In this document: in pieces, positions 39,678 through 55,005 of the stretch
Layout: each line of letters begins with the position of its first letter
Numbering within the stretch: the stretch's first letter is position 1
Assembly: GCA_963810275.1 (NCBI GenBank)
Contig: CAWENF010000019.1
Coordinates: 128,001-192,000, forward strand
DNA length: 64,000 nucleotides
Origin: an uncultured archaeon
GTDB lineage: Archaea; Thermoproteota; Bathyarchaeia; Bathyarchaeales; Bathycorpusculaceae
Direction of reading: 5' to 3'
Made by a program: the position numbers and the translations under genes
Notes under the pieces: generated by a model
Databases searched by the model: none
What the model was told of the DNA's origin: nothing
The model's input: only the letters and a program-made list of their open reading frames with translations

Positions 39678-41015
39678 TTGCCAATCTTACCAATAGATAC
39701 AGGCAGATACGGAACGCCTGAAATGCTCTCGATTTTCCAGGAAGAGAACCGCGTACAGAAACTCTTAGATGTCGAAGCAGCACTTGCTTTGGCGCATGCG
39801 GAAGTCGGTAACATCTCACTAAAAGACGCCGAGGCAATCGCTGAGAAAGCCTCCACCAAGTACGTCAAGGTTGAACGTGTTAAATCGATCGAGAAGGAAA
39901 TCAAGCACGACATCGCCAGTCTTGTCCGCGCCCTCAGCGAGCAGTGCGGCGAAAGCGGCGCATACGTTCATCTGGGCGCAACCAGCTACGATATCGTGGA
40001 CACGGCAAACGCTCTGCAGCTAAAAGACGCTATTGCCGTTCTGGAGAGCCGCCTTAAAGAATTCAAATGTATATTGCAAAAACAGGCGGACACCCATAAA
40101 GCCACCGTTATGATTGGCAGAACCCACGGTCAACATGCCCTTCCCATCACGCTCGGTTTTAAGTTCGCTGTTTGGGGTTACGAAGTCAATCGCCACATAG
40201 AGCGGCTGGACGAATGTAAAAAACGTGTGGTTGCAGGCAAAGTCAGCGGCGCCGTCGGAACACAGGCGGGTCTAGGCGAACACTCAACCGAAATTCAGCT
40301 TCTGGTTATGAAGCGGTTGGGCATCCCCGCAGCAGAAATCTCTACGCAAATCGTGCAGAGAGACCGCTACGCCGAGTTAATTTCCATTTACGCTATGCTT
40401 GCATCGTCGCTAGAGAACTTCGCAACCGAAATCAGAGAGCTTCAGCGCCCCGAAATCGCCGAAGTCTTCGAATCCTTCGAGGCAAAAAAACAGGTTGGCA
40501 GTTCAACTATGCCACACAAGCAGAACCCCGAAACCTGCGAGCGTGTTTGTGGTTTAGCCCGAATCGTCCGCAGTCTCAGTACTCCAGCTTTGGAGGACAT
40601 GGTGACTTGGCACGAACGCGACTTAACCCAATCGTCAGCCGAACGTTTTATTCTACCTGAATCCTCAATCACACTCGACTACATCCTGAGCCTCATGGTA
40701 AATATAGTTGCCAACCTAAGAGTCGACAAAGAGCGAATGCTTCGCAACATGTCCGCCACTAAAGGTCGTGCAATGTCGGAATCCGTTATGATGACGCTAG
40801 TTAAGAAGGGCGTGAACCGACAGGAAGCCCACGAGCTGCTCAGGCAACTCACAATCAAGAGTGCTGTTGAGAAGAAGTCGTTTAAGCAGACGCTGCAGGA
40901 AGACAAACTTGTGGCAAAGACTCTGTCGGAAGCTGAAGTTGACGCGGCGCTTAACCCAGAGAACTACTTGGGCACCGCCGTCGCTCAGGCGGAACGCTTC
41001 GCAAAGGGTGCTTAG
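39678..41015 (+). CDS. purB: Adenylosuccinate lyase
   Basis: HLGATSYDI, GRTHGQHA, GSSTMPHKQNP, HERDLT. Confidence 0.95.
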   Translation: MPILPIDTGRYGTPEMLSIFQEENRVQKLLDVEAALALAHAEVGNISLKDAEAIAEKASTKYVKVERVKSIEKEIKHDIASLVRALSEQCGESGAYVHLGATSYDIVDTANALQLKDAIAVLESRLKEFKCILQKQADTHKATVMIGRTHGQHALPITLGFKFAVWGYEVNRHIERLDECKKRVVAGKVSGAVGTQAGLGEHSTEIQLLVMKRLGIPAAEISTQIVQRDRYAELISIYAMLASSLENFATEIRELQRPEIAEVFESFEAKKQVGSSTMPHKQNPETCERVCGLARIVRSLSTPALEDMVTWHERDLTQSSAERFILPESSITLDYILSLMVNIVANLRVDKERMLRNMSATKGRAMSESVMMTLVKKGVNRQEAHELLRQLTIKSAVEKKSFKQTLQEDKLVAKTLSEAEVDAALNPENYLGTAVAQAERFAKGA

Positions 41016-43298
41016 AAGTCGAATAAGCCCCTCTGCTGGGTCTCGGGTTCTTTGGCAGCGGTTTTAAGTGCTTCCCATTCGTCTTTTTTGACGTAGCCGC
41101 CCACTTGTTCCTTAATTTTTTTCGCCAATCTTGGACCTACAGACGGTAGGTTTGTGAGTTCTTCTATTGAAGCGTGTTTTAGGTCTTCTACGGTTTGGTA
41201 GCCCGCGTTAAAGATTATGCGTCCGCGGACTCTGCCGACGCCCTCCAACGCCACAATTGGCATCAACTCCCGCTTAATGCCCTTGCCAACCCGCTCTACC
41301 AACTCCAAACTCATAGTGGTAATATCCTTGTTTTTAGCTACTACAGGCGACAGCTCCTCAGTTGCATGCAGTAGCCACTTTGCGTTCTCAATGGTGCGGT
41401 ACAGGTCGCCGGGCTGCACATTGAAGCGCTCCATCAGCTTGTCTTCGGGTACTTCCTCAATCCAACTGTTAAGCACCATCGCCGTCTTGACTTCGCCAAG
41501 GAACTCTGCGTAGCCGATGTAGTCGCTTTGTTCTGGTGCCTCAATGAAAAACTCTTCTATATGACCTTCGAGTTCGATGGAGAGTTTATCGACTTCGCGC
41601 TGGTAGGGGCGCATGGTTGGTCCCATGTCTGGGGTATGAGCGATTAAATGCAGCAGGCTAAACTCTGTTAGCATCGGCGGGTTATTTTGCAATGCATCGC
41701 GGATAATCACGCCTGAGAGGGGGTCAATGTATAGTTCGCTTATCCGCTTCCCAAACGGTGTCGCACGAATGTCATCTGCTCCGATCACATAAATCATTTT
41801 TTCATCGTGGAGGAATCGGAGGATTTTTTTGATGACGGCTTCGATGGCTTTAACGTCGTATTGGTACGCATAGAATGTTTTGGCGAAAAACTCGTAGATA
41901 CCCCTCTCAGTGTGGGCATAGTCCGAAGCTATAGTTGATAGGACGTGGGTGCGGATGATTTTCTCTACGGCAAGCCTTGACCAGATGCGTTCGGGCTTGG
42001 CGAGTACGTAGTTTTCCATGAGGAAATCCATTTCGTCCGCTGTTTTGGCCACTAACACGGATTCACCGAACTTGTCGTATTTCGGTCTCCCCGCTCTGCC
42101 CGCCATCTGCTTATAGTCAAGGACGGGGATGGGATAGTTACCCAAGCCTGCCTCGAAGCGGCGATAGTCCTGGATTATGACGGTGCGTGCGGGTAGGTTG
42201 ACTCCCCAAGCCAATGTCGGCGTCGCAGTCAAAACCTTGATTTTGCGCTCTTTGAAGGCATCTTCGATGATTTTTCGGTGCACCCCCGACAGCCCCGCAT
42301 GGTGGTAAGCCACACCGTTGCTGACAAGCTCGGCAAGTTCATCACTAAGCTGTGTGTGTTCGCCTGCATTACGGATCTTTTCCGCCTCTGCGTCGAGCAC
42401 CTCCCGGTTTCGGGCTTCGGTGCTTTTCTTAACCAGCTTGCTGCCGCTTTTAGGGACCAGAATCTTGTCCATGTGACTGGCAACAAGTTTCGCTGCTGAA
42501 ACGGAGTTCTTTCTTGTAGATGCAAAAATCAATGCCTGACCTCCACCTCGCAATGTGTTTAGCACCATGTTGACGACAGTTAAGCGGGTTTCTTGCTCGA
42601 TTTTGCGGGATTCCCCGTTTTTGTACTGGATTTCGTCCTGCAAGATGACGCCCTCTTTCAAATTGATGGGGCGCCAGGTTGTCACTATATGACGTGCATT
42701 TAGCCATCCAGCGATTTCATCCACGTTGTTGATGTTGCGGATAATGCGAGGATTTGGATTTGGGGATTACACTGCATGAGCCGCGCCAAGACGATTTCGA
42801 GGGTAGGTCCGCGGGCAGCCTCATTTAATAGGTGTACCTCGTCGGCTATGACGGCTCCGATGTTGTCCATCCATTTCGCTCGGTGTCGGAGAAGCGAGTC
42901 GGCTTTCTCGTTTGTAGTGATTATAACGTCATGGCGGGCGAGCCAATTGTCGGCGGTGTCGAAGTCGCCTGTGCTGATTCCGACACTCACCTTGCTGCCG
43001 TCGGGTTTGGTGATGGCGGTGTATTTCTGGAACTCCTCAAACTTCTCTGACAGCCAAAGCACGTAAGGGTGAAAGATAGATGACTTTTCCGCCTCCCTCC
43101 AGCACGTGCTTCATTGCGCAGAGCTCCGCTATGAGGGTTTTACCTGAGGCTGTGGGGCTTGCCAACAACAATATTGTGAGCCTCCGAGCACTCCTGCTCC
43201 GTATGCATTCCTCCTGAGGTGGAAACAGCTCGCAAATGCCGCAGCCCAGTGAGGATTTGTTTAACTGAATCTGCGATGGGCAGCTCTGCAATTTTCAG
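41012..43298 (-). CDS. hel308: Hel308/Ski2-like SF2 helicase, several frameshifts in the 5' third
   Basis: ASPTASGKT, DEVH, LSAT, HHAGL, TPTLAWGVNLPA, QMAGRAGRP, C-terminal HhH; pieces are spread over four ORFs. Confidence 0.88.
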
Positions 43299-43563
43299 GT
43301 TAATCGCCGAAATAAGTTATGATGTCGGTAAGTATGATTCGGTGGGTTATTAGGGTTTTTAACGTTTTGTTCTGCGCACTTTTTTCGGGTTGAGTAAGCT
43401 TTGTAGTTTAAATCACAAGTCATTACGTTATTTTTCCGTGATTTTAAATTCGACCCGTTTTATATTTGAAAATACGTTTTGGCGGTTAGGTTTTTTTAGT
43501 TGAAACCCCACTACACAAGGTGACGAGTTATCTATCCAACAAAAACTTATGGTAGGATACTGT

Positions 43564-44784
43564 ATGGTTGAAAACGTCAAAGAACTTCTCAAACTCCACG
43601 AAGGCATAACCCACGAAGTCTACCTAGACAACGAAAACAGCAGCATCGTCCCCCAAGAAGTCGTAGACGCAATGCTCCCGTACTACAACAAAAAAGCCTA
43701 CGGTAACCCCACTCTAACCCACAAACCCGGCTGGGAAGCATTCGAAACAGTAATGGGGTGCTTTCAAAAAATTAGCCGAACCTTAGGTGCAAAACTTGAA
43801 GAAGTCACCTTCACCCCCGGAGAAACCGAAGCCAACAACCTCGCAATCATAGCCGGCTGCTTCGCCCAAAAAGGCAAAGGCAAAAAAATAGTCATCTCAG
43901 AAATCGAACCCATAAACGTCCTGCAAGTAGCAGAAATGATGAGCAAATTCGGCTACGTAACCCAGAAAGTCCCCGTGGACCGAGAAGGCTTCATCAACTT
44001 AGAAAAACTCAAAGCAGCAGTCGACAAAGACACTGTCCTAGTCAGCCTCCACTCAGTGAACAACGAAGTCGGCACCATCCAACCCATAAAAGAAGCTGTC
44101 GATATAGCCAAAACCCAAAACCCAAACGTACTTTTTCACACCGACGCCTCAGACGCCTACGGCAGAATACCCCTAAATGTCTCTGACCTCAAAGTCGACT
44201 TGGCAACATTTAGCAGCTTCAAAATCCAAGGACCCAGAGGCATGGGCGCCCTCTACGTTAAGGAAGGCGTAACCCTCGAACGCATCATCGAAGGTCCTAT
44301 TGGCACGCAGAAGCTGTGGCCAGGTGTCGAAAACACTCCCCTTATCGTTGGATTTACCAAAGCCTCCGAGTTGGCATTCGCAGATTTCGAAAGTAACGTT
44401 GCGAGACTCCGAAGTTTACGCGACAAACTAGTAGATGGAATATTTAGCGAACTCACTGACCTGCGGTTTAACGGGCCTGAAGGCGACAAACGCAGCCCCG
44501 ACAACGCCAACATCAGCATTTTGCGAGCCGAAGGTGAAGCCCTAACAATAGAACTCAGCTTGAGCGGTGTCTATGTTTCCAGCGGAAGTGCATGCAGCCG
44601 CCGCCTCTTGCAACCCAGCCATGTCTTAATCGCCATCGGACGCGTTTACGAAGAAGCCCACGGCAGTATTCTTATGAAAGTTACGCGCAGCCACACAGAA
44701 GATGATATTAGTTACGTTTTAGAAGTTCTACCTAAAGCAGTGAACCGTATCAGAGGGATAGTTGGCTCAACAGGAGTGCACTAA
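43564..44784 (+). CDS. IscS/NifS-like protein with a degenerate PLP/substrate site (probable pseudo-desulfurase)
   Basis: Group I fold and SSGSACS loop present, but canonical motifs are replaced by DNENSS, GETE, EPINV, DASD, SSFK, WPGV and GSILMK. Confidence 0.85.
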   Translation: MVENVKELLKLHEGITHEVYLDNENSSIVPQEVVDAMLPYYNKKAYGNPTLTHKPGWEAFETVMGCFQKISRTLGAKLEEVTFTPGETEANNLAIIAGCFAQKGKGKKIVISEIEPINVLQVAEMMSKFGYVTQKVPVDREGFINLEKLKAAVDKDTVLVSLHSVNNEVGTIQPIKEAVDIAKTQNPNVLFHTDASDAYGRIPLNVSDLKVDLATFSSFKIQGPRGMGALYVKEGVTLERIIEGPIGTQKLWPGVENTPLIVGFTKASELAFADFESNVARLRSLRDKLVDGIFSELTDLRFNGPEGDKRSPDNANISILRAEGEALTIELSLSGVYVSSGSACSRRLLQPSHVLIAIGRVYEEAHGSILMKVTRSHTEDDISYVLEVLPKAVNRIRGIVGSTGVH

Positions 44785-44785
44785 A

Positions 44786-45301
44786 ATGTCACGTATACCA
44801 TTACCATACAACCCTAAAGTTATGGATTTGTTCCGTAACCCCAAAAACCTGGGCAAAATGGAGGACGCAACCGTCATCGCAATCGCAGGTAACCCTGCAT
44901 GCGGAGACATGATAACCTTCTACATGAAAATCAAGGAGCAGACCCAGGTTATCGAGAAGGCTCAGTTTGAAAGCTACGGCTGCGCAGCCAACATCGCAAC
45001 CAGCAGCATAGTAACGGAGATGGTCAAAGGCTTAACATTGGAAAATGCCTGGAAAAACATCACCTGGCAGAAGGTCACCGAGGAAATCGGCGGCCTGCCC
45101 AGTGTTAAATTCCACTGCGGAGTCCTAGCCGTCGGCGCACTTAAACGTGCAGTTAGGCTTTACTTTGAACAGAAAAAAATCCCAACCCCCGACTGGCTTC
45201 CAGCAGAACACACATTCGAGGAAAAGCAAGCGCTTGAAGAAGAGGAATTGGCAAAGACTCTCTCTAAGAGGATGAAGCCTGAGGCAGAAAAGAAACAGTG
45301 A
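44786..45301 (+). CDS. iscU: Fe-S cluster scaffold IscU/NifU with a charged C-terminal extension
   Basis: GNPACGD, YGCAANIATSS, LPSVKFHC (three Cys plus His). Confidence 0.92.
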   Translation: MSRIPLPYNPKVMDLFRNPKNLGKMEDATVIAIAGNPACGDMITFYMKIKEQTQVIEKAQFESYGCAANIATSSIVTEMVKGLTLENAWKNITWQKVTEEIGGLPSVKFHCGVLAVGALKRAVRLYFEQKKIPTPDWLPAEHTFEEKQALEEEELAKTLSKRMKPEAEKKQ

Positions 45302-46533
45302 ACATCCAAGCTATACGCCGGGACTTCCCCATAATAGAGAGGACAATCAACGGCAAACCTCTCATTTACTTTGATAACGCAGCAACCACCCAGAAACCTC
45401 GCCAGGTCATCGAAGCAATAGTCGACTTTTACAATAATCACAACGCGAACGTGCATCGCGGCGTACATACGCTGAGCATGGAAGCCACAGAAATGCACGA
45501 GCAAGCACGCGAACGGATCGCCGAATTTATTAATGCTAAGTCGGAGCGTGAAATCGTTTTTGTTAGGGGTACAACCGAAGCCATCAACCTCGTTGCGCAT
45601 TCGTTGGGCTGCAGCAGCCTAGGCATAGGGGATGAAGTGCTGGTTTCGCTTATGGAGCATCACAGCGACATCGTGCCTTGGGAAATCCTTGCTCAGTGTA
45701 AGGGCTTTAAAATTAAATATGCAAATGTATTTGACAACGGTACTCTTGACTACGAGGATTTTGAAGCTAAAATCAACAAGAACACACGAATATGCTGCCT
45801 AAGCCAAGTCAGCAACGTAACAGGTGTCATAAACGACGTTAAACGAATAACTAAAGCCGCCCACGACAGCGGTTCTCTGATGCTTGTTGACGGCGCCCAA
45901 TCCGTACCTCACATGCCAGTGGATGTGCAGGACATCGGCATAGATTTCTTGGCGTTTTCGGGACACAAAATGCTCGGACCCACAGGAATCGGCGTTCTTT
46001 ACGGCAGAGACGATGTGCTCAAAAAGATGACTCCTTTCCAAGGTGGCGGAGAAATGATAAAAGAAGTCTCAATGCAACATGGGCACTGCACAATTTCTTG
46101 GAATGAGCTACCATGGAAGTTTGAGGCAGGCACCCCAAACATTGAAGGTGCAATAGGGTTTGGTGCCGCCGTTAAATACCTCCAAAACCTGGGCATGCAA
46201 AGCGTGTTTAGCCATGAAAAAAAACTGACAGAGTACGCTTACAGCCGCCTACGAAATTTAAGTAATATACACCTCTACGGCACAACTGATGTGTCCAAAA
46301 AATGTGGCATCATACCTTTTGGTATAGAAGGCTTCAGTTCGCATGAAACTGCAGCGCTGTTTGATGAGTTTGGCGTTGCACTGCGTAGTGGCTACCACTG
46401 CGCACAGCCGCTGCACGAAATCTTAAAACTAAACTCTACAGCGCGGGCAAGCTTCTACATATACAACACTAAAGAAGAAATAGACCGTTTTATTGAAGTC
46501 TTAGGGGAGATAGATAATGTCTACAGTCGCTGA
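45298..46533 (+). CDS. sufS: Group II cysteine desulfurase SufS
   Basis: FDNAATT, RGTTEA, MEHHSD, VDGAQS, FSGHKM, FEAGTP, RSGYHCAQP and ARASF are all intact. Confidence 0.92.
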   Translation: MNIQAIRRDFPIIERTINGKPLIYFDNAATTQKPRQVIEAIVDFYNNHNANVHRGVHTLSMEATEMHEQARERIAEFINAKSEREIVFVRGTTEAINLVAHSLGCSSLGIGDEVLVSLMEHHSDIVPWEILAQCKGFKIKYANVFDNGTLDYEDFEAKINKNTRICCLSQVSNVTGVINDVKRITKAAHDSGSLMLVDGAQSVPHMPVDVQDIGIDFLAFSGHKMLGPTGIGVLYGRDDVLKKMTPFQGGGEMIKEVSMQHGHCTISWNELPWKFEAGTPNIEGAIGFGAAVKYLQNLGMQSVFSHEKKLTEYAYSRLRNLSNIHLYGTTDVSKKCGIIPFGIEGFSSHETAALFDEFGVALRSGYHCAQPLHEILKLNSTARASFYIYNTKEEIDRFIEVLGEIDNVYSR

Positions 46534-46774
46534 TTATGTCTCGCGTATCGAGGGCACTTGTGGCGCAGAAAGCGACGTCATAGTTAACTTCAAATACGAA
46601 AAAAAAGACGAAGCCATCGCTAACATAATGAAAAAAGCTACGTTAAAAAACACCATCGCAGGAATAATTTTCGAGTTAACGTTTGACGGGCGCTCTTTTC
46701 GACTTTACACAAGCGGTAAAGCTATCTTCCGAGGATTCAAAACTAAAACCGAACTAGTGAATTATCTTGGCTAA
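46517..46774 (+). CDS. Small single-Cys protein resembling the C-terminal domain of ThiF/MoeB-family adenylyltransferases
   Basis: EGTCG...FELTFDGRSFRLYTSGKAIFRG; overlaps the sufS stop by 17 nt. Confidence 0.65.
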   Translation: MSTVADYVSRIEGTCGAESDVIVNFKYEKKDEAIANIMKKATLKNTIAGIIFELTFDGRSFRLYTSGKAIFRGFKTKTELVNYLG

Positions 46775-46839
46775 ACTTCTGCTCTAACCGCACGAACCAT
46801 TTTTATAGATTCACATATAAATAGAACCAAAAGCTAAAG

Positions 46840-47958
46840 ATGTTCAATCCAGTGAGAACTTGGCTAAAACTGAGGAAAAGCGATATATTACTACAACAGA
46901 AAAGTAGAAAGCCGAGTGTTTCAATCATAATCCCCACCTACAAACGTGGGCACCTGCTAAAGCATCTTTTAAATGCATTAACAAATCAGACCAGCAGCGA
47001 TTTCGAAGTCTTAATTGTAGTAAAACCAAGCGGAGATGAAACCGAAGATGTTGTCAGAGCGTATAGTGACAAACTGAGAACAAACCTGATCATACAAACT
47101 CAAGGTTTTGTTGTTGATGCACTAAATCTTGGGTTAGAAAGTGCCGAGGGTAAAATCATCCTTTTTCTTGACGATGATGCCATCCCCTTCCCAAACTTAG
47201 TACACTTATACATCATTTCATATGAACAACAAAAAATAGGTGGCGTCGCAGGGGACGTCATACCCATAACTCTTAGAGACGGCGAGATATGTCCCTTCGA
47301 GGGAACTCCCTCAGAGATAGTGCCTGCAGATCATTCTTGTCAGGCTTCTATTTCTGCAAAATTTTGTAATCTTCCAATAAAGGGACAAGATGATTACATG
47401 ATCTACCTATCTAAAGCAGGATTCGTCTCGGTGAATTTTGCGGTTGCAAATCGTGCGCTGGCTCACACGAGGCATTCTCTTCTCGCCAAAGGAGCAAATA
47501 TGTCCATCTTAGCAAAAGCCGCTGAAGGATTCAAGTTCCCAACTTCATGGATCTTTGGCTTAACCTTCGAGCAGTACTTAGGTTGGTACTTATGGAAAAA
47601 GGGCTACATTGTTCTTTTTAACCCGAAAATCAAGGCTTACCATATCCATCACGGACAATCATTATCACGCAATATAAGAAATGCAAAAAAAGAAGCGGTC
47701 CTCTACACAGAGTCCAGATTGCTATTCTTCAGACTCTACGGCATCGAACCTGAGCTTTCATTAATGCATAGGCTTGTATTTCTATTGATGGAAACGGCTA
47801 TTGACATTAAAAGTATTTGCCTACACAAAGAAACCTTCCGAATAAGTAGATTTAGGAACAAGTTTTATGCAGAGTTGCTGGGTTTGAGGTGGCTTATTTA
47901 CAAAAGGGCAGGGTCGAATTATTCGCCGCTCGAAGATTTGAAGAAAATTCTACAATAG
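46840..47958 (+). CDS. Glycosyltransferase family 2
   Basis: VSIIIPTYKR, ILFLDDDA, GANMS. Confidence 0.88.
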   Translation: MFNPVRTWLKLRKSDILLQQKSRKPSVSIIIPTYKRGHLLKHLLNALTNQTSSDFEVLIVVKPSGDETEDVVRAYSDKLRTNLIIQTQGFVVDALNLGLESAEGKIILFLDDDAIPFPNLVHLYIISYEQQKIGGVAGDVIPITLRDGEICPFEGTPSEIVPADHSCQASISAKFCNLPIKGQDDYMIYLSKAGFVSVNFAVANRALAHTRHSLLAKGANMSILAKAAEGFKFPTSWIFGLTFEQYLGWYLWKKGYIVLFNPKIKAYHIHHGQSLSRNIRNAKKEAVLYTESRLLFFRLYGIEPELSLMHRLVFLLMETAIDIKSICLHKETFRISRFRNKFYAELLGLRWLIYKRAGSNYSPLEDLKKILQ

Positions 47959-48071
47959 ATTTTCATGAATAGTTATATTTCAAAACCTTTAGATAACTAA
48001 AGAAGTGTGCCCTCTATGCAGAACCTTTCAGTACTCACCAAAACTGTACTTATCTTGGATGTCGAGGAGTT

Positions 48072-49169
48072 ATGAAAGTCTGCATGATTTCAGGTCTGGC
48101 TAAGTTTTCTGGGGGGCTCGAAAATGTTGTTGAAGCAATAAGCAAATCCCTTGTTGTTCGCGATATTGCAGTGGATATTTTTGGCAAAAGCAACCGCGAT
48201 TTTGTTGAATACCATAATAAGTGTAGAATAATCGGGGTTCGCCCATATTCTCTGGTCCCTCATTTGCGGGGAATCCCAAGATATGGCAAATATCAATACA
48301 ACCTTAGAGTTTATATGAAAAGTAAAACCTATGGACCTTATGACTTGATTCATGGGCACGGAGACAACTGCTTTTTCTCCTCACTATTCAGAGAAAAAAC
48401 TCCTTTCCTAATGACATTTCACGGGACAATGGCAAAGATTTTGGATGATGTTTCAGATCCACGGCTCAAACCAGTTCTTTATCCTGAAAGAGTTGCAGTC
48501 AACCGATGTGATGTCGCCGTTGCTTGTTCGAGAGCTGTGAAAAACGAGTTAACTTACTATTATGGAACCTCGGCTGGAAAGATCAAAGTAATCTATAACG
48601 GAATTGATGTGAAAAAGTTTGCGCCAATGGATAAAAAGGCAGCTCGAAGAAAACTTGGCATGCCTGAAAGCGGTAAATATGCGCTTTGGGTGGGTAGCAA
48701 TCCCACTCGGAAAAGGCTGAAGACAGCGGTTAAAGCCGTTGAAAAATCAAAATGCTCGAAGTTGCTGGTAGTTGGAATGACTGGAGAAAACATGAGAAAA
48801 ACCGTTTTTCTTGGGAAGCTTCCTGAGGCAGCTCTGATTGCTGCTTACAGCGCCGCAGATGTGCTAATTTTTCCAACAGCCTATGAGGGCTTTCCAATAG
48901 TTCCATTAGAAGCCCTTTCATGTGGTCTACCCGTAATAGCATCCGAGGAGTCGAATATAGGTGAAATAATCGAAGAGAGTAAGCATGGTTTCATTGTTAA
49001 AGACGGCAACCCGAACTGTTATCAGCGAAAAATCGACCAAATCATAAACGACGATTCTGCACTGAATCAAATATCCATAAATTGTCGTGAACTGGCTTTG
49101 GATTACAGCTGGCAAAAGCAGGCGAATAAGTACTGGTTAATCTACCGGAGTCTCCTAAGAAATAGGTAA
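48072..49169 (+). CDS. Glycosyltransferase family 4
   Basis: GGLE, IYNGID, EGFPIVPLEALSCGLPVI. Confidence 0.9.
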   Translation: MKVCMISGLAKFSGGLENVVEAISKSLVVRDIAVDIFGKSNRDFVEYHNKCRIIGVRPYSLVPHLRGIPRYGKYQYNLRVYMKSKTYGPYDLIHGHGDNCFFSSLFREKTPFLMTFHGTMAKILDDVSDPRLKPVLYPERVAVNRCDVAVACSRAVKNELTYYYGTSAGKIKVIYNGIDVKKFAPMDKKAARRKLGMPESGKYALWVGSNPTRKRLKTAVKAVEKSKCSKLLVVGMTGENMRKTVFLGKLPEAALIAAYSAADVLIFPTAYEGFPIVPLEALSCGLPVIASEESNIGEIIEESKHGFIVKDGNPNCYQRKIDQIINDDSALNQISINCRELALDYSWQKQANKYWLIYRSLLRNR

Positions 49170-49202
49170 GCTCCCGTCAGGGAAACAACTGACTTTTTTC
49201 AA

Positions 49203-50349
49203 CTATTTACCTCCTTGCAAAAACCCCTCTACATTAGCCCAAATTTGTTCCTCAAACTTTTCAGGTTTTAGTACCGAAATCTTCTCACGTAGCGGCTTTT
49301 TCCTTATATTCCAGATTTCAAAACCATACCTTGACTCAGATAATCTGACGATTTTTTCTTTAAGGTCTTCTAATGTGTTCCAGCGATACTCTTTTGGGAT
49401 GAAGTCTCCGCTGCCGCCACTATTATGGACCAGTGTTATGCAGCCGCTTGCCAATGCTTCCATGGGTGCAATGCCGAAATGTTCGCCTTCCATAAGATGG
49501 CAGTAAATGGTTGAATCCTTTAGTAGAGTGATTAACTCTTTTTCAGGCAAGTTTGGCTTAACTGTGTAGTTAGTTGGAAGGGTCTTCGAGAAGTCCTCAA
49601 ACCATGCTTGCTCTGTATCTCTAAGCAAGCCGACGCTCACAAACTGTAACTGGGGAAAATAAACCGCTAGCTGTTTTAGTATTTCATGCCTTTTTGATGG
49701 AACAAACCTCGCTGTATAGACTACTCGGTTAACTCGTCCTGCAAGGGGTTTTTCAGACCAGAAAGGCGTCTCAACAGGCGGATAGGCAACAATGGGGTTT
49801 ACGATGCCAAATTTGCCCCAATATTTTTGGATAGCTGTTTTGGTGTATTTGCTGTTGCAAAATACTAACCCCAATTGGTTTATGTGGCGTTCAAGCTGAG
49901 TCTTGTAAAGCCACCAATACATCTTCTTAGTTGTCTTGCAATGGGCGTAGTAGTCAGGAATTTCTGGAAAGTGCACGTAAGCGATGTTTTTTCTGCTTTT
50001 CTTAAAGAGCTCAGTTTCAAAGGCCGATATAGTTTGGGTGCTAAACATGTAATCGTACTTTGCACTGGCTTTGTATTTTTTTAGTAGCTTGACTATGTTT
50101 CGGCGTCTTTTATACATAGACAGCGGCGGGTTAGCTTCCATAGTATTTCGGTTGCCCAGCATATGAACTAAAACACCACGGGGTATTCCTTCGCCTATTA
50201 TTTCTCGATAATGCTTCTCTTCAAAATCAAAAGATAGCAGCTCCACCTGCTGACCACGCAGTGAGAAGGGCTTTGATGATGTGGTGACAGACACGTTCCC
50301 CGCCTCCGTAGATATCTAAGTTTGGGTGTACAACAAGATATTTTGGCAT
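49203..50349 (-). CDS. ALG11-like GT4 glycosyltransferase, paralog A (frameshift near 50262)
   Basis: ATG at 50349 gives VHPNLDIYGGGERVC; downstream YVHFPE, CNSKYT, YPPV, ARFVPSKRHE, EHFGIAPMEALASG, HNSGG. Confidence 0.85.
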
Positions 50350-50391
50350 ACCACAACATCAACTTAGGTAGCTATTATTTTTTTGAGTTAA

Positions 50392-51919
50392 TCAAGATTT
50401 CTCAATGCCTATTTTGTCTGTTTTCTGAGCGCTAATTTTGCTTTAGCCTTTGTTCGACTAACCCAGTTCACAGCAGGAAGTAACGGATACTTTACGGAGT
50501 CAGGCAGGGCATCTTTAAGTTCTCTATGTAACCCCAGCTTGATAGCGAATTTACCTTTTCGGTAATAGGCACGTAATAACGCGTTATTGGAAATTTTGCG
50601 AAACCATTGTTTTCTTTGAATTTATCCAGTGAGGGATGATTCCCAATTCGGCCATACATCAGCCACTTTTCACCCTTCCCAGTGCAGACCTCGACTGCTT
50701 TGGCTATGAGTGCGTTGTTGACGGATTTATCAAAGTACTTCTGCATCGAAAGAATATTTGAGAGTATGGCAATGTTATCGCCGTGCAGTATCTGGATAAA
50801 ACCAGCTAACTCATCGGCAAAGTATGCAGCGATAAATGTCGAGTTTTTCTCTGAATACATATTCGCTGAAACATTCTCAATGGATTCGCCGTAATGTGGA
50901 AAAGCGCGACCCTGCCTAATGGGCGTCTCGTTATAAATTTTCCATATACCTTCAGCCAATTCGTCACTTTGAGACGCAACTGAAACTTTTATGTCGTCCT
51001 TTTCGGCTTTTCGGACCATGTTTCTGGTTTTTTTACCAATGGTGCTCCACCAAGCTTGGTAGTCTTTTATCTCCAGTAACCCAATATTATCGTCGGTTTT
51101 AACCCAGGTGCTTGGTGGATTGATAATTGGGCAGCACCATTTTCGGTCAATAAACGTAAAGATGTCTGCTCCTCTGAGTTGGAGTTTACACAAGAAATCC
51201 TCTGTTGGGTTGACGTTTTTGTAGTATTCTCTAAAGTCTCGAGCGATCTTAACTGTTAATGTATTGCGCATGCTGACTGTATCAAGGTCGGCATCAACTT
51301 CCAGCATGGTCTTTAGCGTATCGTAAAAGGGACCCCTCTGAGTTTTATTTGTAGTCTGAAAAAGCCACTCTGGATGCATCGACATAACTTTCCCCTGCTC
51401 AATCCACTCCTGTGTTTCTTTAACCGCAGTTTCGAAACCGCGCAAATAGCGCTCTCTATCTAGACTCATAGTTTGCAAATCATGAAAAGAAGTCAAGGCA
51501 AAATCTTTTGGAATGCTGGCTTGTGTTTGGCTAAGATTTCGGCCCCAGAGTATCTGAGCTAAAAGTCTTTGGGTTCCGTGGATTGTGTAGTATTTAATGA
51601 CACGGTTTGTTTTAGCTTCTAGGCTTTTCCATTCTTCTTTAGGTCTATTTGCAACATGAAGCGCTACCTCATGCTTATCAGGGCTTAATAGGTCAAGCAA
51701 TCGTTTGTCGGGGATAGTGTAAGGAGTAAAAAACCAGTATGCATTCACGGATTTGGATGATTCATTAACCATCTTTGCGATGATACATGCGTTTCTTAGG
51801 TAATCTTTGCCTTTTCCAGTTTTACGTCGAAACGCTATGTTTAGGAAACTTTTGGTCCTTGAAGGATAAGGGTAATCTACATCGATTCTTAGTTTAATCA
51901 TTGCTGCCTCAGTTGCCAA
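50392..51919 (-). CDS. Polysaccharide deacetylase-like domain fused to a GNAT/FemAB-like domain (frameshift near the 3' end)
   Basis: RIDVD, HEVALH, TIHG and SMHP in the N-half; KKTRNMVRKAEK, NALIAKAVE and SLDKFKENNGF in the C-half. Confidence 0.65.
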
Positions 51920-52027
51920 GTTTAGTGAGCCCCAATTTTAGTTATAAACCCTTCTAAGTTACTGAACTCGAATTAAAATCAACCCGCAGCATAATAGTAA
52001 AAAAATGTGCTCACAACCTGAGTGTTA

Positions 52028-53508
52028 TTAGCTATGTTGTATTGCATATTTTGCGGCGCCTAAAATTAGACCATTTGTGTGTATGCTGATTCCCCCGGGT
52101 AACTTCTTTCCAGATTCGTCGATTCCATTGTGGTAGCCGAAATATGAAACGGGAAAGGCTTCCTCTAAATGCATTACCATGTTTTTGAAAAAGCTGTATT
52201 ATTTAAAGCAAGAAAACAGAATGCAGTTTTAATGTATGTTACTGGTGTCATTTCAATAGTAGTCCGATCTACTGTTTTTATGACCCATAATTCGGTCGCC
52301 ATACACTACCCATTCATAAATCCAATCACCAAAAGAAGGGCCTTCACCGAAGGCACGATATACACCTGTTTGATTGTAGAATGTTTCATGTGCTGAATAG
52401 ACTTCTTGGACAAGAGTTTCAATTTTTTCAGGACTGTTTAAGTCAAAAAGCGCTCCAAATAGAGGTTCGGTTAAAATCCGACCTTTATGTAAAGTTATAT
52501 TTCCATAAGGAATTGTTTGTGAGGATAATATGTTTATCCAAAACTGTTTCTGGGGCATTTGCCATTTCTTGCGGCCAAAAACTTGCGAAACCCGAGGCGT
52601 AAAAATATGTATAGATGCTATTAGATGATTGGCACTCCGCTTTTATACCTGGTACTAAAACAGCATAGTTAGATCTGTTTCCATAAGTCGCTGTTTCCAT
52701 ATTTGTTATATACAAAATTGTCTATTCTCGTTTCTAAGTTAGTGTCAAAGTTTTTAAGATTATTGAGGGCAACAAATAATCGTCCCGTATCAACTACATC
52801 TACCCATGGTGCGTTATCCGAGTTTTCCTCGTAATTTTCTCCTTTACTTGTGTAAAACCAGAATGGGTAATGTGTGGTTTCATTGAGGTCCCGTGTTTCC
52901 AAAAAAGTCAGAACTTTCTCTGTACGAGCGGTAGAACCTGAGGTTCCGTTTTTGTCTATTATACCTATTGTTTGTGCATCAATAATAGCCTGAATATAAA
53001 CACCTAAATCCCAATCTGTAAATGATGAAAACTCTCCGCTTGAACCGGGTAGACCTGTCTCGGGGTCGACTTGTTTCTCGAAGTAGTTCCATGCGTAGGC
53101 AGCAATTTTTTTCCAGGTAGTGCTGTTTATGTTTTGGGAGTTTTTAACTATCATATAGCTATCGTCAGTAACTGCATCTGCTATTGTATCGATAATCTGC
53201 TCAATTATGTTAGGCGATGGGTTTGGTGTTGCAGTTGGAGTTACTGTTGAGTTACTAATGGGGGCTGCGTCGGGCTCTGCGGTGGATGGATGCGGGATAT
53301 CAGGGACAGTATTGTTTTCTCGGGGATAAAAAGCAAAACAGGAAACTAAAATCGCAATCGCTAATGTCGCTCCTAGTATTACTTTTCCTCTCTTGCCAAG
53401 TTTAAAACTTCGTTTTGGCGTAGATTCTTTGGGCTGCATTACCGGGGGGACTTTAGGGTTAGTAAATATTGATGAAAACAAACTGTGATGCCCGTGCGGA
53501 TTTACCAA
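52028..53508 (-). CDS. Membrane-anchored DUF3131-like glycoside hydrolase/transglycosylase-like protein, multiply frameshifted
   Basis: N-terminal TM and Pro/Thr linker, then AWNYFEKQVDPETGL, TDWDLGVYI, DTGRLFVAL, TEP, AFGEG, YEWV, HTNGLIL across several frames. Confidence 0.65.
52675..52701. repeat. 11-bp direct repeat CTGTTTCCATA x2 with a 5-bp spacer
   Basis: Copies at 52675-52685 and 52691-52701; coincides with a frame break in the DUF3131-like gene. Confidence 0.7.
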
Positions 53509-53874
53509 GTGTTATTCCCCATCTAATGGGGACAGCTTAACATAAATAACTATTATAAAATTTCCCGTCCTCATCTACTTTGTGTGATGATGCTTAGAGA
53601 TCTTTTTAATTTAAATTTATTGAAAAATGAAGCGCTAACTCGAAATGGAACGCTTTTTTATTTTTATTATCCTCTATCTCTTTAGTGCTATTTTTTATGT
53701 TCTGTAGTTTTTAGGATTTTATATCCTTTCTTTATGTGGAGCAAGATTTCTGTTTAGATGTTCTACTGAGCTTTTAGCGTTGACTTTGTAGGGTTGCTAT
53801 TTCTCCAAGAAATATGTTAACTTCATAAATACAGATACATTGCCTGTTACTAAATTTAAAAAAATTCACTTAAC

Positions 53875-55005
53875 CTATCTTTCTTTTATCAGGTCTTCCA
53901 CGTAAGTCCAAATCTGCTTCTCAAAGCCATCCGGAGTTAAAACCCCGATTTTCTCCCAGAGTTCGCGGCGTCTGATTTCCCAAACGTTATGCGCCTCCAT
54001 GTTTTTGACGATTTTTTCTTTGAGGTCTTCGATGCTTCTCCAGCGGTACTCTTCGGGAATGAACTCACGCATACCGCCACTGTCATGCACCAAGGTAACG
54101 CAGCCGCTGGCTAAGCCTTCGACTGGTGCGATGCCAAAGTGTTCGCCTTCCATAAGATGAACATAGACTCGACTGTCATGGAGCAGTTTGAGGAGTTCGG
54201 GTCCGGGAAGATTAGTTTTGAGTGCGTAGTTTTTGGGCATATCTTTTGATAAGGTTTCGAACCATTGCTTCTCTGCTTCAATTAAGCCCCCAACACTTAC
54301 AAACTCGAACTGGGGCAAATCAGTTGCCAACCGCTTCATAATCTCGTGGCGTTTAACGGGGATGAAGCGGGCAACATACACTACTCGCTTTTTGCGCTGC
54401 GCTAATGGTTTGTCGTTCCAGAATTTCCCCAAGTTCACAGGGGGATATACGACAATGGGTTTTTTTGCGCCTTGACTGCTCCATAGCCGCATCATGTTTT
54501 CCTTGGTGTAGTTGCTGTTGCAGAAAATCAAGTCCAGTTTGCCTATGCCCTGCTCAACCCATCTTTTGAATAGCCACAGGTATAGTCTGCGTTTTTTGGT
54601 GCCGCGCTCGTAATCGAAGTGGATTTCGGGGAAATGTACGTAGGCGATGTTTTTTTTGGCTTTGTTTAGAAAAGTGGGTTCAAAGGGTGAAGATGATTGG
54701 GTGCTAAAGAGGTAGTCGTAGGTGAGTTTTTCCCGAAATTTTTTGAGTAGCCCAACGTAGTTGTGGTGACGCTTGTAAATGGTAAACGGCGGGCTTTCTT
54801 TTGTGCGTTTGCCCAGCGAGTGCACCTTAACCTGTTTTGGGAACTCTTCGCCTACGATGTTGCGGTACCGTGTCGCGTCAAATTCGAAGGTGAGCAGTTC
54901 CACTTCTTGGTTGTGGTTAACTAGGGTTTTGATAACGTTGTGGCAGACGCGTTCTCCGCCTCCGTATATGTCAAGGTAGGGGTGCACTACTAGGAACTTC
55001 GCCAA
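53875..55005 (-). CDS. ALG11-like GT4 glycosyltransferase, paralog B
   Basis: VHPYLDIYGGGERVC, YVHFPE, CNSNYT, VYPPV, ARFIPVKRHE, EHFGIAPVEGLASG, HDSGG. Confidence 0.88.
   Translation of the reverse strand: MAKFLVVHPYLDIYGGGERVCHNVIKTLVNHNQEVELLTFEFDATRYRNIVGEEFPKQVKVHSLGKRTKESPPFTIYKRHHNYVGLLKKFREKLTYDYLFSTQSSSPFEPTFLNKAKKNIAYVHFPEIHFDYERGTKKRRLYLWLFKRWVEQGIGKLDLIFCNSNYTKENMMRLWSSQGAKKPIVVYPPVNLGKFWNDKPLAQRKKRVVYVARFIPVKRHEIMKRLATDLPQFEFVSVGGLIEAEKQWFETLSKDMPKNYALKTNLPGPELLKLLHDSRVYVHLMEGEHFGIAPVEGLASGCVTLVHDSGGMREFIPEEYRWRSIEDLKEKIVKNMEAHNVWEIRRRELWEKIGVLTPDGFEKQIWTYVEDLIKER

Follow-up and report, generated by a model that had tools for sequence, protein, structure and literature searches.

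How an IscU-type scaffold obtains sulfur when the IscS-like protein encoded beside it has a rebuilt active-site pocket is the question raised by four genes in the window, by which we mean the whole 64,000-nucleotide stretch of bathyarchaeial DNA analyzed here. The sulfur source of the minimal MIS and SMS systems and the role of inactive IscS paralogues are both described as open in the available text of recent reviews (PMC13066941). The locus provides a defined four-protein set for in vitro tests of both questions, consisting of an IscS-like protein that is probably only a scaffold, IscU, an intact SufS that lacks a canonical acceptor, and a small protein that is a candidate new acceptor. We propose, with belief and doubt evenly balanced, that these genes encode a scaffold of the MIS type to which SufS supplies sulfur via the small protein, which would act as a persulfide relay.

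The four open reading frames lie on the + strand (43564-46774) and encode, in order, the IscS-like protein, IscU, SufS, and a small protein with one cysteine. The co-oriented layout reported in the first-pass annotation, whose start codons give a 1-nt gap followed by overlaps of 4 nt and 17 nt, is borne out by the list of open reading frames and by the family matches. The IscS-like gene (43564..44784, +; MisS-type, group I) starts at 43564 or at an alternative ATG at 43549, for a product of 406 or 411 aa, respectively. The frame of the IscU-type scaffold gene (44786..45301, +) opens at 44762 and has an ATG at 44786. The SufS gene (45298..46533, +) encodes 411 aa, and the gene for the small protein (46517..46774, +) encodes 85 aa (89 aa in relatives). 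Compared to three relatives, the latter has an extra, frame-shifting base near its 3' end (within 46769..46787, +), resulting in loss of the last five residues, AKLLL. The +1 frame retains the coding sequence for this conserved C terminus (46770-46787). The A+T-rich region between the operon and a divergent helicase gene (43292..43548, no strand assigned) reads as a putative archaeal promoter, with the TATA-like words tttaaat and ttatattt about 80 to 105 nt upstream of the first ATG. The spacer that follows the operon (46775..46839, no strand assigned) includes a T5 run and a TATA-like word, possibly a terminator and a promoter, and precedes a gene for a family 2 glycosyltransferase. The neighbors of the operon are a helicase and glycosyltransferases, and genes for HscAB, IscA, ferredoxin, and IscR were not found within the operon.

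The IscS-like protein matches Aminotran_5 (180 bits), and a PDB sequence search gives cysteine desulfurases as the top matches (9wep, 2.4e-85; Archaeoglobus fulgidus IscS, 4eb5, 1.3e-80). Its scores fall under the NCBIfam equivalog cut-offs for both NifS (359.5 versus 530.75) and IscS (286.9 versus 643.2). Arg354 (E. coli numbering, as for all residues of this protein) is the residue that binds the substrate carboxylate in desulfurases, and R354L is one of five changes in the window protein, along with H104P, Q183D, H205F, and T243V. Retained are K206 (SSFKIQGP), the loop cysteine C328 (SSGSAC), Asp180, and Ser203. All 22 clade members, which are 59-87% identical, share H104P, Q183D, and R354L as well as K206 and C328, and at the five changed positions the replacements are confined to P, D, Y/F, V/I/L, and L, respectively (22/22). 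We considered a decaying pseudogene and rejected this reading because the gene is intact and its alignment across families has more than 140 invariant columns. Its pattern of conservation points to a stable subfamily that is probably not a desulfurase. The label "pseudo-IscS" given in the first-pass annotation therefore stands for the loss of His104, Gln183, His205, Thr243, and Arg354 but fails for the PLP lysine and the loop cysteine, both of which remain. The related claim of a catalytically dead IscS is well supported: this protein is very probably without desulfurase activity, as positions 104 and 183 are Pro and Asp in 22/22 members and, according to the available text of PMC9978102, the E. 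coli IscS variants H104Q and Q183E are desulfurase-inactive. The retained Lys206 may nevertheless allow PLP binding and some other chemistry.

The neighboring scaffold protein matches NifU_N (1.9e-39), scores below the cut-off of the SufU model (61.9 versus 92.5), and also falls under the IscU and NifU equivalog cut-offs. Its translation includes three cysteine cluster ligands (in CGD, GC, and HC motifs), the Asp after the first of them, an LPSVK motif, and a charged C-terminal tail of about 40 aa. SufS scores above the cut-off of TIGR01979 (573.8 bits versus 475.1). Its catalytic motifs (HHS, SGHKM, and HCAQP) are intact, and H121, H122, H223, K224, C368, and R383 are invariant alignment columns. 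As the first-pass annotation had proposed, SufS looks active, and the family score and motifs mark it as a bona fide type II cysteine desulfurase. We found neither a SufE nor a protein reaching the SufU cut-off in this genome, which is 92.6% complete.

The small protein, noted earlier for its cysteine, indeed has one Cys in 85 aa, and Cys15-Gly16 form the sole invariant columns in the family alignment. Acidic residues surround the cysteine in the standalone family (consensus IExxCGxExD). A Pfam/NCBIfam search returned no match for this protein, and a PDB sequence search returned nothing (best E value, 0.71). When 30 family members were compared to Pfam at E <= 1, SufE, SufU, TusA, and DsrE were absent among the 25 most-matched of 32 families, and sub-threshold matches linked 16/30 members to TBP and 9/30 to DUF3378 (the RNase HIII N-domain). 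The protein models confidently (pLDDT 91.5) as a TBP-like fold, beta-alpha-beta4-alpha, in which the cysteine is placed on a beta-hairpin loop. A Foldseek comparison of the model to the PDB gave nothing at E <= 1e-3. A wider fold search gave weak matches with Z <= 6.0, the range of common arrangements (e.g., TBP 1mp9_B, Z 5.7, rmsd 3.1 over 79 residues; and 2d0a, Z 4.1; both weak), and the folds of SufE, SufU, TusA, and DsrE did not occur among the 50 entries listed, although such an absence proves nothing. Complex prediction for two SufS chains with the small protein gave scores of 0.13 and 0.06 against a mark of 0.32, which speak neither for nor against binding.

Several side observations concern the wider family. 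A homologue in the Atlas leads only to unnamed archaeal clusters and one TBP-labeled cluster, which may serve as leads, and one source labels a family member as an ArsR-family metal-binding regulator. No Thermococcales protein occurs among the best 120 matches of a profile search with divergent family members, and a scan with a Korarchaeota member yielded a single doubtful locus whose neighbors are not relevant. An apparent SufS-small protein fusion occurs as a single open frame in one genome (G011, 58% complete), where the end of the SufS sequence is replaced. We do not use it as evidence because the frame is equally likely to result from a 1-nt indel or a misassembly.

Profile comparison shows homology between the small protein and the C-terminal domain of ThiF/MoeB-type E1s. 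The family profile matches all 14 E1 open reading frames in a small set (E values of 3e-9 to 1.5e-6), the N-terminal part of which is ThiF (PF00899, 6.4e-78). The whole small protein aligns to the C-terminal domain, and the CG of the E1s aligns with that of the profile wherever the alignment reaches that far. CG is present in 13 of these 14 E1s and CA in one, a count that is not an unbiased rate because the 13 additional E1 loci (L140-L152) were chosen from many weak matches in favor of long alignments. At the corresponding position, MoeZ/MOCS3-type E1s have a persulfide-carrying rhodanese domain. Paralogues of the small protein come after genes for FwdD/FwdB-like molybdopterin enzymes (3/3 paralogue loci), and the maturation of such enzymes needs sulfur carriers (FdhD). 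We tentatively suggest, with doubt somewhat outweighing conviction, that the small protein represents a new class of persulfide carrier (transpersulfurase) with a TBP-like fold. The free form would act for SufS and for the inactive IscS-like protein with IscU, its paralogues would serve the maturation of molybdopterin/tungstopterin enzymes, and the E1-fused form would replace rhodanese.

The first-pass annotation treated the four genes as a single system, and their order is in fact kept by relatives. IscU, SufS, and the small gene are contiguous in 20/20 short loci of the genus, 16/20 wider loci show the complete order of four genes, and all four genes are clustered in 11 of another 18 loci that belong to other families of the class. 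Given these counts, the arrangement is not due to chance. The invariant core is the triad of IscS-like, IscU, and small genes, around which SufS moves in four arrangements, changing position and strand between families. Whenever SufS does not lie in between, the small gene comes after IscU and not after SufS (arrangements B, C, and D). SufS is unlinked in one genus (about 725 kb away in a genome consisting of one contig), and no SufS-like gene was found in two triad genomes, G066 (94% complete) and G275 (92% complete). The triad can therefore function when SufS is not adjacent and perhaps even when SufS is lacking altogether. The four genes have remained neighbors despite at least three different rearrangements, also beyond the class, and in a Methanomethylicota record SufS and the small gene form a pair of their own, divergent from IscU and the IscS-like gene.

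Co-occurrence was assessed in 301 genomes of the class (E <= 1e-184 for the IscS-like protein and E <= 1e-13 for the small protein). The small protein is matched in every genome with the rebuilt IscS-like gene (65/65), and no strong match was found in the 11 genomes that have only a sister IscS-like type, which retains His104 and His205 and carries R354L. SufS-like genes are common in the class (189/301), and they occur in 62 of the 65 triad genomes versus 127 of the 236 others.

Other inactive-looking IscS-IscU pairs have sulfur carriers in the same place as the small protein. A separate IscS paralogue in the window genome (contig C17) lacks the PLP lysine (SSNDMYGP, with Asp at that position), and this Lys-less IscS-IscU pair is flanked by TusA and a DsrE-like gene. 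A DsrE-like gene also adjoins the sister type in 5/5 loci. The first-pass annotation had likened the window protein to the dead IscS of Archaeoglobus. The window protein is not of that Lys-less type, because it has the lysine, and the pair without it is encoded elsewhere in the genome.

The scheme that we infer, with its persulfide transfers and physical contacts, would operate as follows. IscU would be the scaffold, paired with an IscS-like protein that has kept the PLP lysine and the cysteine on its mobile loop and seems to have the dimeric body of IscS. Because the residues for cysteine binding and desulfuration are lost, this partner would act as a docking platform and, by analogy with Archaeoglobus IscS-IscU, would probably also supply a cysteine ligand to the cluster as it forms. 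The type II SufS encoded in the same operon would mobilize sulfur from cysteine, and the small protein (85-89 aa) would accept the persulfide on its invariant loop cysteine and pass it to IscU or to the loop cysteine of the IscS-like protein. The homology to the E1 C-terminal domain and the gene contexts suggest that the small protein may have this relay role. A division of labor running from SufS through the small protein to the scaffold was already proposed in the first-pass annotation. It remains plausible, and the unit is conserved, but the data do not require SufS to feed the small protein, given that the position of SufS varies, that one genus has it unlinked, and that no SufS was found in two of the 65 genomes.

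Alternatively, the small protein could assist the IscS-like/IscU scaffold as an accessory without relaying sulfur. Its task might be to donate iron, to ligate the cluster transiently, or to promote release or regulation in the way of frataxin/CyaY, IscX, or a carrier, and SufS would then deliver sulfur directly to IscU (as it does to SufU) or to the loop cysteine of the IscS-like protein. We consider an accessory role a real but distinctly less probable explanation. The small gene is tied to the IscS-like-IscU pair in every arrangement and to SufS in only some, it co-occurs with this IscS-like type without exception, and the triads of G066 and G275 have no detectable SufS. In addition, the cysteine and carboxylates of the IExxCGxExD consensus could bind iron or a cluster. 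However, one cysteine per chain is few for cluster binding, and the same CG-bearing domain ends E1 enzymes, where sulfur transfer is expected rather than cluster handling. The sister pairs, moreover, have the sulfur carriers DsrE and TusA at the equivalent place. No frataxin-like match was among the 50 listed fold-search entries, which is weak evidence. The shifts in SufS position and strand could be taken to indicate that sulfur and Fe-S genes simply lie side by side and share no mechanism, but we regard this as highly improbable in view of the 65/65 co-occurrence and of four genes that remain together despite repeated rearrangement and across classes.

The conserved pocket of the IscS-like protein raises another alternative, that it is a PLP enzyme with an altered substrate or reaction (another sulfur or selenium compound, or sulfide), so that the locus would encode two active enzymes with separate tasks. 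The retention of Lys206, Asp180, Ser203, and the loop cysteine fits such an enzyme, as do the new residues fixed in 22/22 members, and the pattern resembles remodeling more than decay. The sister type also retains His104 and His205. We nonetheless judge an altered enzyme unlikely, as the catalytic His is Pro, the arginine that holds the substrate carboxylate is Leu, and the scores lie far under the NifS and IscS equivalog cut-offs. Furthermore, single changes at His104 or Gln183 abolish E. coli IscS activity, according to the portion of PMC9978102 available. It is more improbable still that the small protein regulates the operon as a TBP-like DNA-binding protein, with its cysteine sensing thiol or Fe-S status. 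The sub-threshold TBP and RNase HIII N-domain matches, the fold-search match to TBP 1mp9, and the ArsR-family label are compatible with a regulator, and the TBP domains of TBP, RNase HIII, and glycosylases are nucleic acid binders, as described in the accessible text of PMC3597702. Nevertheless, the closest detectable homologue is an enzyme domain, that of the E1s, the cysteine loop is acidic, the paralogues lie at the 3' end of enzyme operons, and the small gene overlaps or abuts the gene upstream, in the manner of an operon subunit.

If the small protein does represent a new carrier class, anaerobic archaea would have a sulfur relay of their own, distinct from SufE, SufU, TusA, DsrE, and rhodanese, and the purpose of "dead" IscS paralogues would be explained. 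Through the homology with the E1 C-terminal domain, the finding would also bear on thiocarboxylate sulfur transfer (MoaD/ThiS/SAMP) and, through the FwdBD-like genes, on the maturation of metal-pterin enzymes. We found no description of the four-gene unit, or of a connection between the small family and sulfur, in the searchable literature, and we know of no experiment on any member. Garcia et al. 2022, reportedly the founding paper on MIS, and Burroughs et al. 2009 may bear on these points.

Among known systems, the closest comparisons involve other scaffolds and their sulfur donors. [quoted passage not shown] Similarly, the locus has a type I IscS-like gene directly upstream of an IscU-type scaffold gene in an operon without chaperones or carriers, and the host is an anaerobic archaeon with a SufB-like (SmsB-type) gene elsewhere in the genome. 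It differs in that the IscS-like protein lacks His104, Gln183, and Arg354, which argues against a MisS-style desulfurase role, and in that a type II SufS and a fourth, one-Cys protein without a name belong to the conserved unit. In A. fulgidus, as far as the accessible parts of PMC13066941 and PMC8918507 go, a desulfurase-inactive IscS gives its loop cysteine as the fourth [2Fe-2S] ligand to the IscU cluster. The window pair resembles A. fulgidus IscS2-IscU (PDB 4EB5 and 4HVK) in having an apparently inactive IscS paralogue next to IscU, and the SSGSAC loop is retained. In contrast, the A. fulgidus protein has Asp199 in place of the PLP lysine and holds PMP (D199K variant, 4R5F), whereas the window protein has the lysine and shows a different set of losses.

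The presence of a type II SufS gene next to that of a small protein with a single, essential-looking loop cysteine recalls SufS-SufE and SufS-SufU, but the small protein matches neither SufE nor SufU and its predicted fold is different. Unlike in the SUF system, the scaffold here would be IscU with the IscS-like protein, not SufBCD. The nearest precedents for the small protein are the monopartite archaeal TBP-domain proteins of Brindefalk et al. 2013 (PMC3597702), about 90-97 aa in length and of unknown function according to the text available. Those proteins are euryarchaeal (Thermococcales), and that portion of the paper makes no link to sulfur or Fe-S and does not contain the word "cysteine." Its Table 3 gives YP_182545 as the TBP of T. 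kodakarensis and YP_184404 as the monopartite protein. If that TBP is TK0132, the monopartite protein would be TK1991, a neighbor of the characterized desulfurase gene TK1990 (PMC12442378), and, if TK1991 belongs to the small family, a genetically tractable model would be available. The small protein is likewise a single-domain archaeal protein of similar size with a predicted TBP-like fold. The same text describes a "ThiF-MoeZ-MoeB group" with a C-terminal TBP domain on MoeB/ThiF homologues, and E1s with such a C-terminal domain were found here in relatives.

We conclude that the constant unit at this locus consists of the IscS-like protein, IscU, and a one-Cys protein (together, the triad), and that SufS is a fourth member which is often present and usually adjacent but which can move. 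In the window, all four genes lie on the plus strand: the IscS-like ORF (43564-44784, from the ATG at 43564, with an alternative ATG at 43549), IscU (44786-45301), SufS (45298-46533), and the one-Cys protein of 85 aa (46517-46774). In operon order, the first two genes are 1 nt apart and the next two junctions overlap by 4 and 17 nt; these ORF coordinates bear out the spacings reported for the co-oriented genes in the first-pass annotation. A 257-nt A+T-rich spacer separates the operon on its 5' side from a divergent helicase gene, and on its 3' side 65 nt, including a T5 run, lie before a glycosyltransferase gene.

Within the genus, IscU, SufS, and the small gene are contiguous in all 20 short loci, and the full order of the window recurs in 16 of 20 wider loci; the other four comprise one locus cut at SufS, one triad without SufS, and two paralogues elsewhere. 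Among 18 further loci from other families, four have the order of the window, four place SufS ahead of the triad, three have the triad followed closely by a convergent SufS, and four have the triad only (two of these are cut by contig ends), the rest being one uninformative locus, one paralogue, and one E1 locus. SufS is unlinked to the triad in one genus (g7), and in a Methanomethylicota record SufS and the small gene are divergent from the IscS-like gene and IscU. Synteny across relatives, proposed at first pass as a check, holds for the four-gene order in most genus loci and some beyond, but not for the position of SufS.

Because the 301 sampled genomes of the class are related, co-occurrence counts among them describe the sample and do not amount to a statistical test. 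The IscS-like profile (E < 1e-140) matched 76 of them in two clearly separate score groups: 65 genomes at E <= 1e-184, with the rebuilt type (H104P, Q183D, and R354L, with K206 and C328 kept; E. coli IscS numbering), and 11 at 1e-165 to 1e-170, with a sister type only. A strong small-protein match (E <= 1e-13) was found in 71 of the 301, including 65/65 rebuilt-type genomes and 0/11 sister-type-only genomes; in two of the other six, the IscS-like gene is cut by a contig end (L042 and L055). SufS-like genes (E <= 1e-100) were detected in 189 genomes, comprising 62/65 with the rebuilt type and 127/236 others. Of the three rebuilt-type genomes without such a match, G181 carries a SufS gene divided into two parts by contig ends, and no SufS-like gene was found in G066 (94% complete) or G275 (92% complete). 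The small protein is primarily tied to the scaffold pair.

The IscS-like protein matches Aminotran_5 and in family searches is nearest to NifS and IscS, far under both equivalog cut-offs (359.5 versus 530.75 and 286.9 versus 643.2, respectively). Aligned to E. coli IscS (locus L059) and one solved desulfurase, the window protein keeps T76, D180, S203, K206, and the SSGSAC loop including C328, and it carries H104P, Q183D, H205F, T243V, and R354L. In a set of 22 sequences (the window protein and, from loci throughout the class, 21 full-length relatives), P104, D183, L354, K206, and C328 are present throughout; at position 205, 19 sequences have Y, two have F, and one has N, and position 243 is occupied by V, I, or L. 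In active IscS, Arg354 holds the substrate carboxylate. E. coli IscS variants H104Q and Q183E are described as being without desulfurase activity (PMC9978102). Given these variants and the role of Arg354, we infer, on good grounds, that the rebuilt type has lost desulfurase activity. The earlier label "pseudo-IscS" calls for qualification: residues 104, 183, and 354 are replaced in 22/22, with K206 and C328 retained. Identities of 59 to 87% and more than 140 invariant columns mark the clade as a subfamily under selection rather than a pseudogene. With K206 in place, the protein may still bind PLP or catalyse another reaction. One record titled Methanocella sp. (L064), among otherwise Bathyarchaeia-titled records, has an IscS-like gene 85% identical to that of the window; this contig is possibly mis-binned or mislabelled.

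The small protein had no match in family searches. It is a real, conserved gene: 42 of 61 relatives have a match, and within the genus 34 of 36 genomes do. In a large protein collection, 1396 clusters match it at E <= 1e-3; an exhaustive single-sequence search returned no more than 42 representatives when clustered at 50%, and the family is therefore narrow. Its named members are from Bathyarchaeia, Brockarchaeota, Methanomethylicota, and Korarchaeota, under the source names "hypothetical," "ribonuclease HIII," and "TBP," with "ArsR family regulator" and "glutaredoxin-related" once each. Only C15 and G16 are invariant in 30 diverse members, and when 15 divergent members were aligned separately, the C, the G, and one further G were invariant. 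The confident AlphaFold model (pLDDT 91.5, pTM 0.79) has an N-terminal beta-hairpin with the Cys on a less confident loop, followed by a helix, four strands, and a last helix. Foldseek returned nothing for this model at E <= 1e-3, and a wide fold search gave weak matches, the best to a CYTH-type cyclase (Z 6.0), with TBP 1mp9 at Z 5.7 (rmsd 3.1, 79 residues) and RNase HIII N-domains at Z 4.1. Together with sub-threshold Pfam matches to TBP (16/30 members) and DUF3378 (9/30), these matches make a TBP-like fold likely but not proven.

A class-wide search with the small-protein profile also gave many weak matches within open frames of about 350 aa. We collected 14 such E1 ORFs, namely, L057 (870-1907) and 13 more (L140 to L152) chosen in favour of long alignments. 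The L057 ORF, the only one scanned, is ThiF (PF00899, 6.4e-78, Pfam), and its likeness to the other 13 suggests that they are of the ThiF/MoeB type. The C-terminal roughly 90 residues match the profile in all 14, and the E1 "LCG" aligns on the profile CG wherever the alignment extends that far; in these ORFs, picked for long alignments, the motif is CG in 13 and CA in one. MoeZ/MOCS3/Uba4-type E1s have at the same C-terminal position a rhodanese domain whose Cys carries persulfide, and it is mainly this parallel that makes the small protein a putative sulfur carrier in our reading. The E1 ORFs with this domain are the "ThiF-MoeZ-MoeB group" of TBP-domain proteins that Brindefalk et al. listed with no function assigned (PMC3597702). 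The E1 of the window's own genome (contig C3:87185-87907) ends before the domain. In relatives, small-protein paralogues directly follow genes for FwdD-like (Molydop_binding) and FwdB-like (molybdopterin oxidoreductase) proteins at 3/3 loci (L028:4044-6298, L029:6011-8282, and L051:6088-7927), which suggests a role in Mo/W-pterin enzyme maturation.

Frame irregularities lie in and near the operon. At 46769-46787, the small gene has one base more than in three relatives, so that ...YLG-stop replaces ...LAKLLL-stop, and the lost C-terminal residues are still coded in the +1 frame. The Hel308/Ski2-like helicase upstream (41012-43291, minus strand) falls into three overlapping ORFs that do not share a frame (DEAD part 1, 84 aa; DEAD part 2, 120 aa; and a C-terminal part of 570 aa that holds Helicase_C and archaeal domain 4), so that either the gene is broken or the assembly contains indels. 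The extra base and both frame breaks may be single-base assembly errors. Downstream, a glycosyltransferase-like gene run (46840-54000; G+C 0.38 to 0.42 versus about 0.47 elsewhere) is probably a surface-glycan island.

The SufS of the window scores 573.8 bits against TIGR01979 (cut-off, 475.1), and IscU matches NifU_N (1.9e-39). No SufE was found in the genome and no protein reaches the SufU cut-off, both IscU copies scoring lower; by these searches, SufS appears to be without its canonical partner. In the 58%-complete genome G011, SufS and the small protein share one open frame (L030:5101-6438) with the last SufS residues replaced, through a 1-nt indel or else a genuine fusion. A transpersulfurase requirement is reported for type II SufS (PMC10011822). 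The divided labour proposed at first pass therefore remains the best single account: SufS would mobilise sulfur, the small protein would relay it, and the probably inactive IscS-like protein would dock IscU. By analogy with Archaeoglobus, where a loop Cys of IscS is described as a cluster ligand (PMC13066941, PMC8918507), the IscS-like loop Cys may be a ligand of the IscU cluster. The proposal needs amending in that the small protein goes primarily with the scaffold pair and SufS is movable.

Other altered pairs occur in these archaea. A second pair in the same genome (C17:24130-26607) lies in the order TusA, Lys-less IscS (SSNDMYGP), IscU, and DsrE-like gene; a third NifU_N-like gene is found at C26:79223-79468. 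The sister type, read in five of its 11 genomes (L156 to L160), keeps H104, H205, and K206 with Q183D, T243V, and R354L and is flanked by a DsrE-like gene and IscU in 5/5 loci, none of which has SufS or the small protein nearby. This His-keeping type also occurs in one Methanomethylicota record. The altered IscS proteins that pair with IscU in these archaea are thus of three kinds or more, counting the Lys-less, rebuilt, and His-keeping types. The TusA and DsrE genes beside these other pairs, together with the E1-domain homology, support the small protein as a candidate sulfur carrier.

A search of the accessible literature, with the founding MIS paper outside its scope, found no rebuilt-pocket subfamily, obligate one-Cys partner, or SufS recruitment, nor, with the E1 natural-history paper likewise outside, a link between the small protein and the E1 C-terminal domain. 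Inactive IscS is, to our knowledge, known from one Lys-less example. The Lys-less IscS on C17 resembles the Archaeoglobus type, and the IscS-like-IscU pair of the window fits the published MIS concept.
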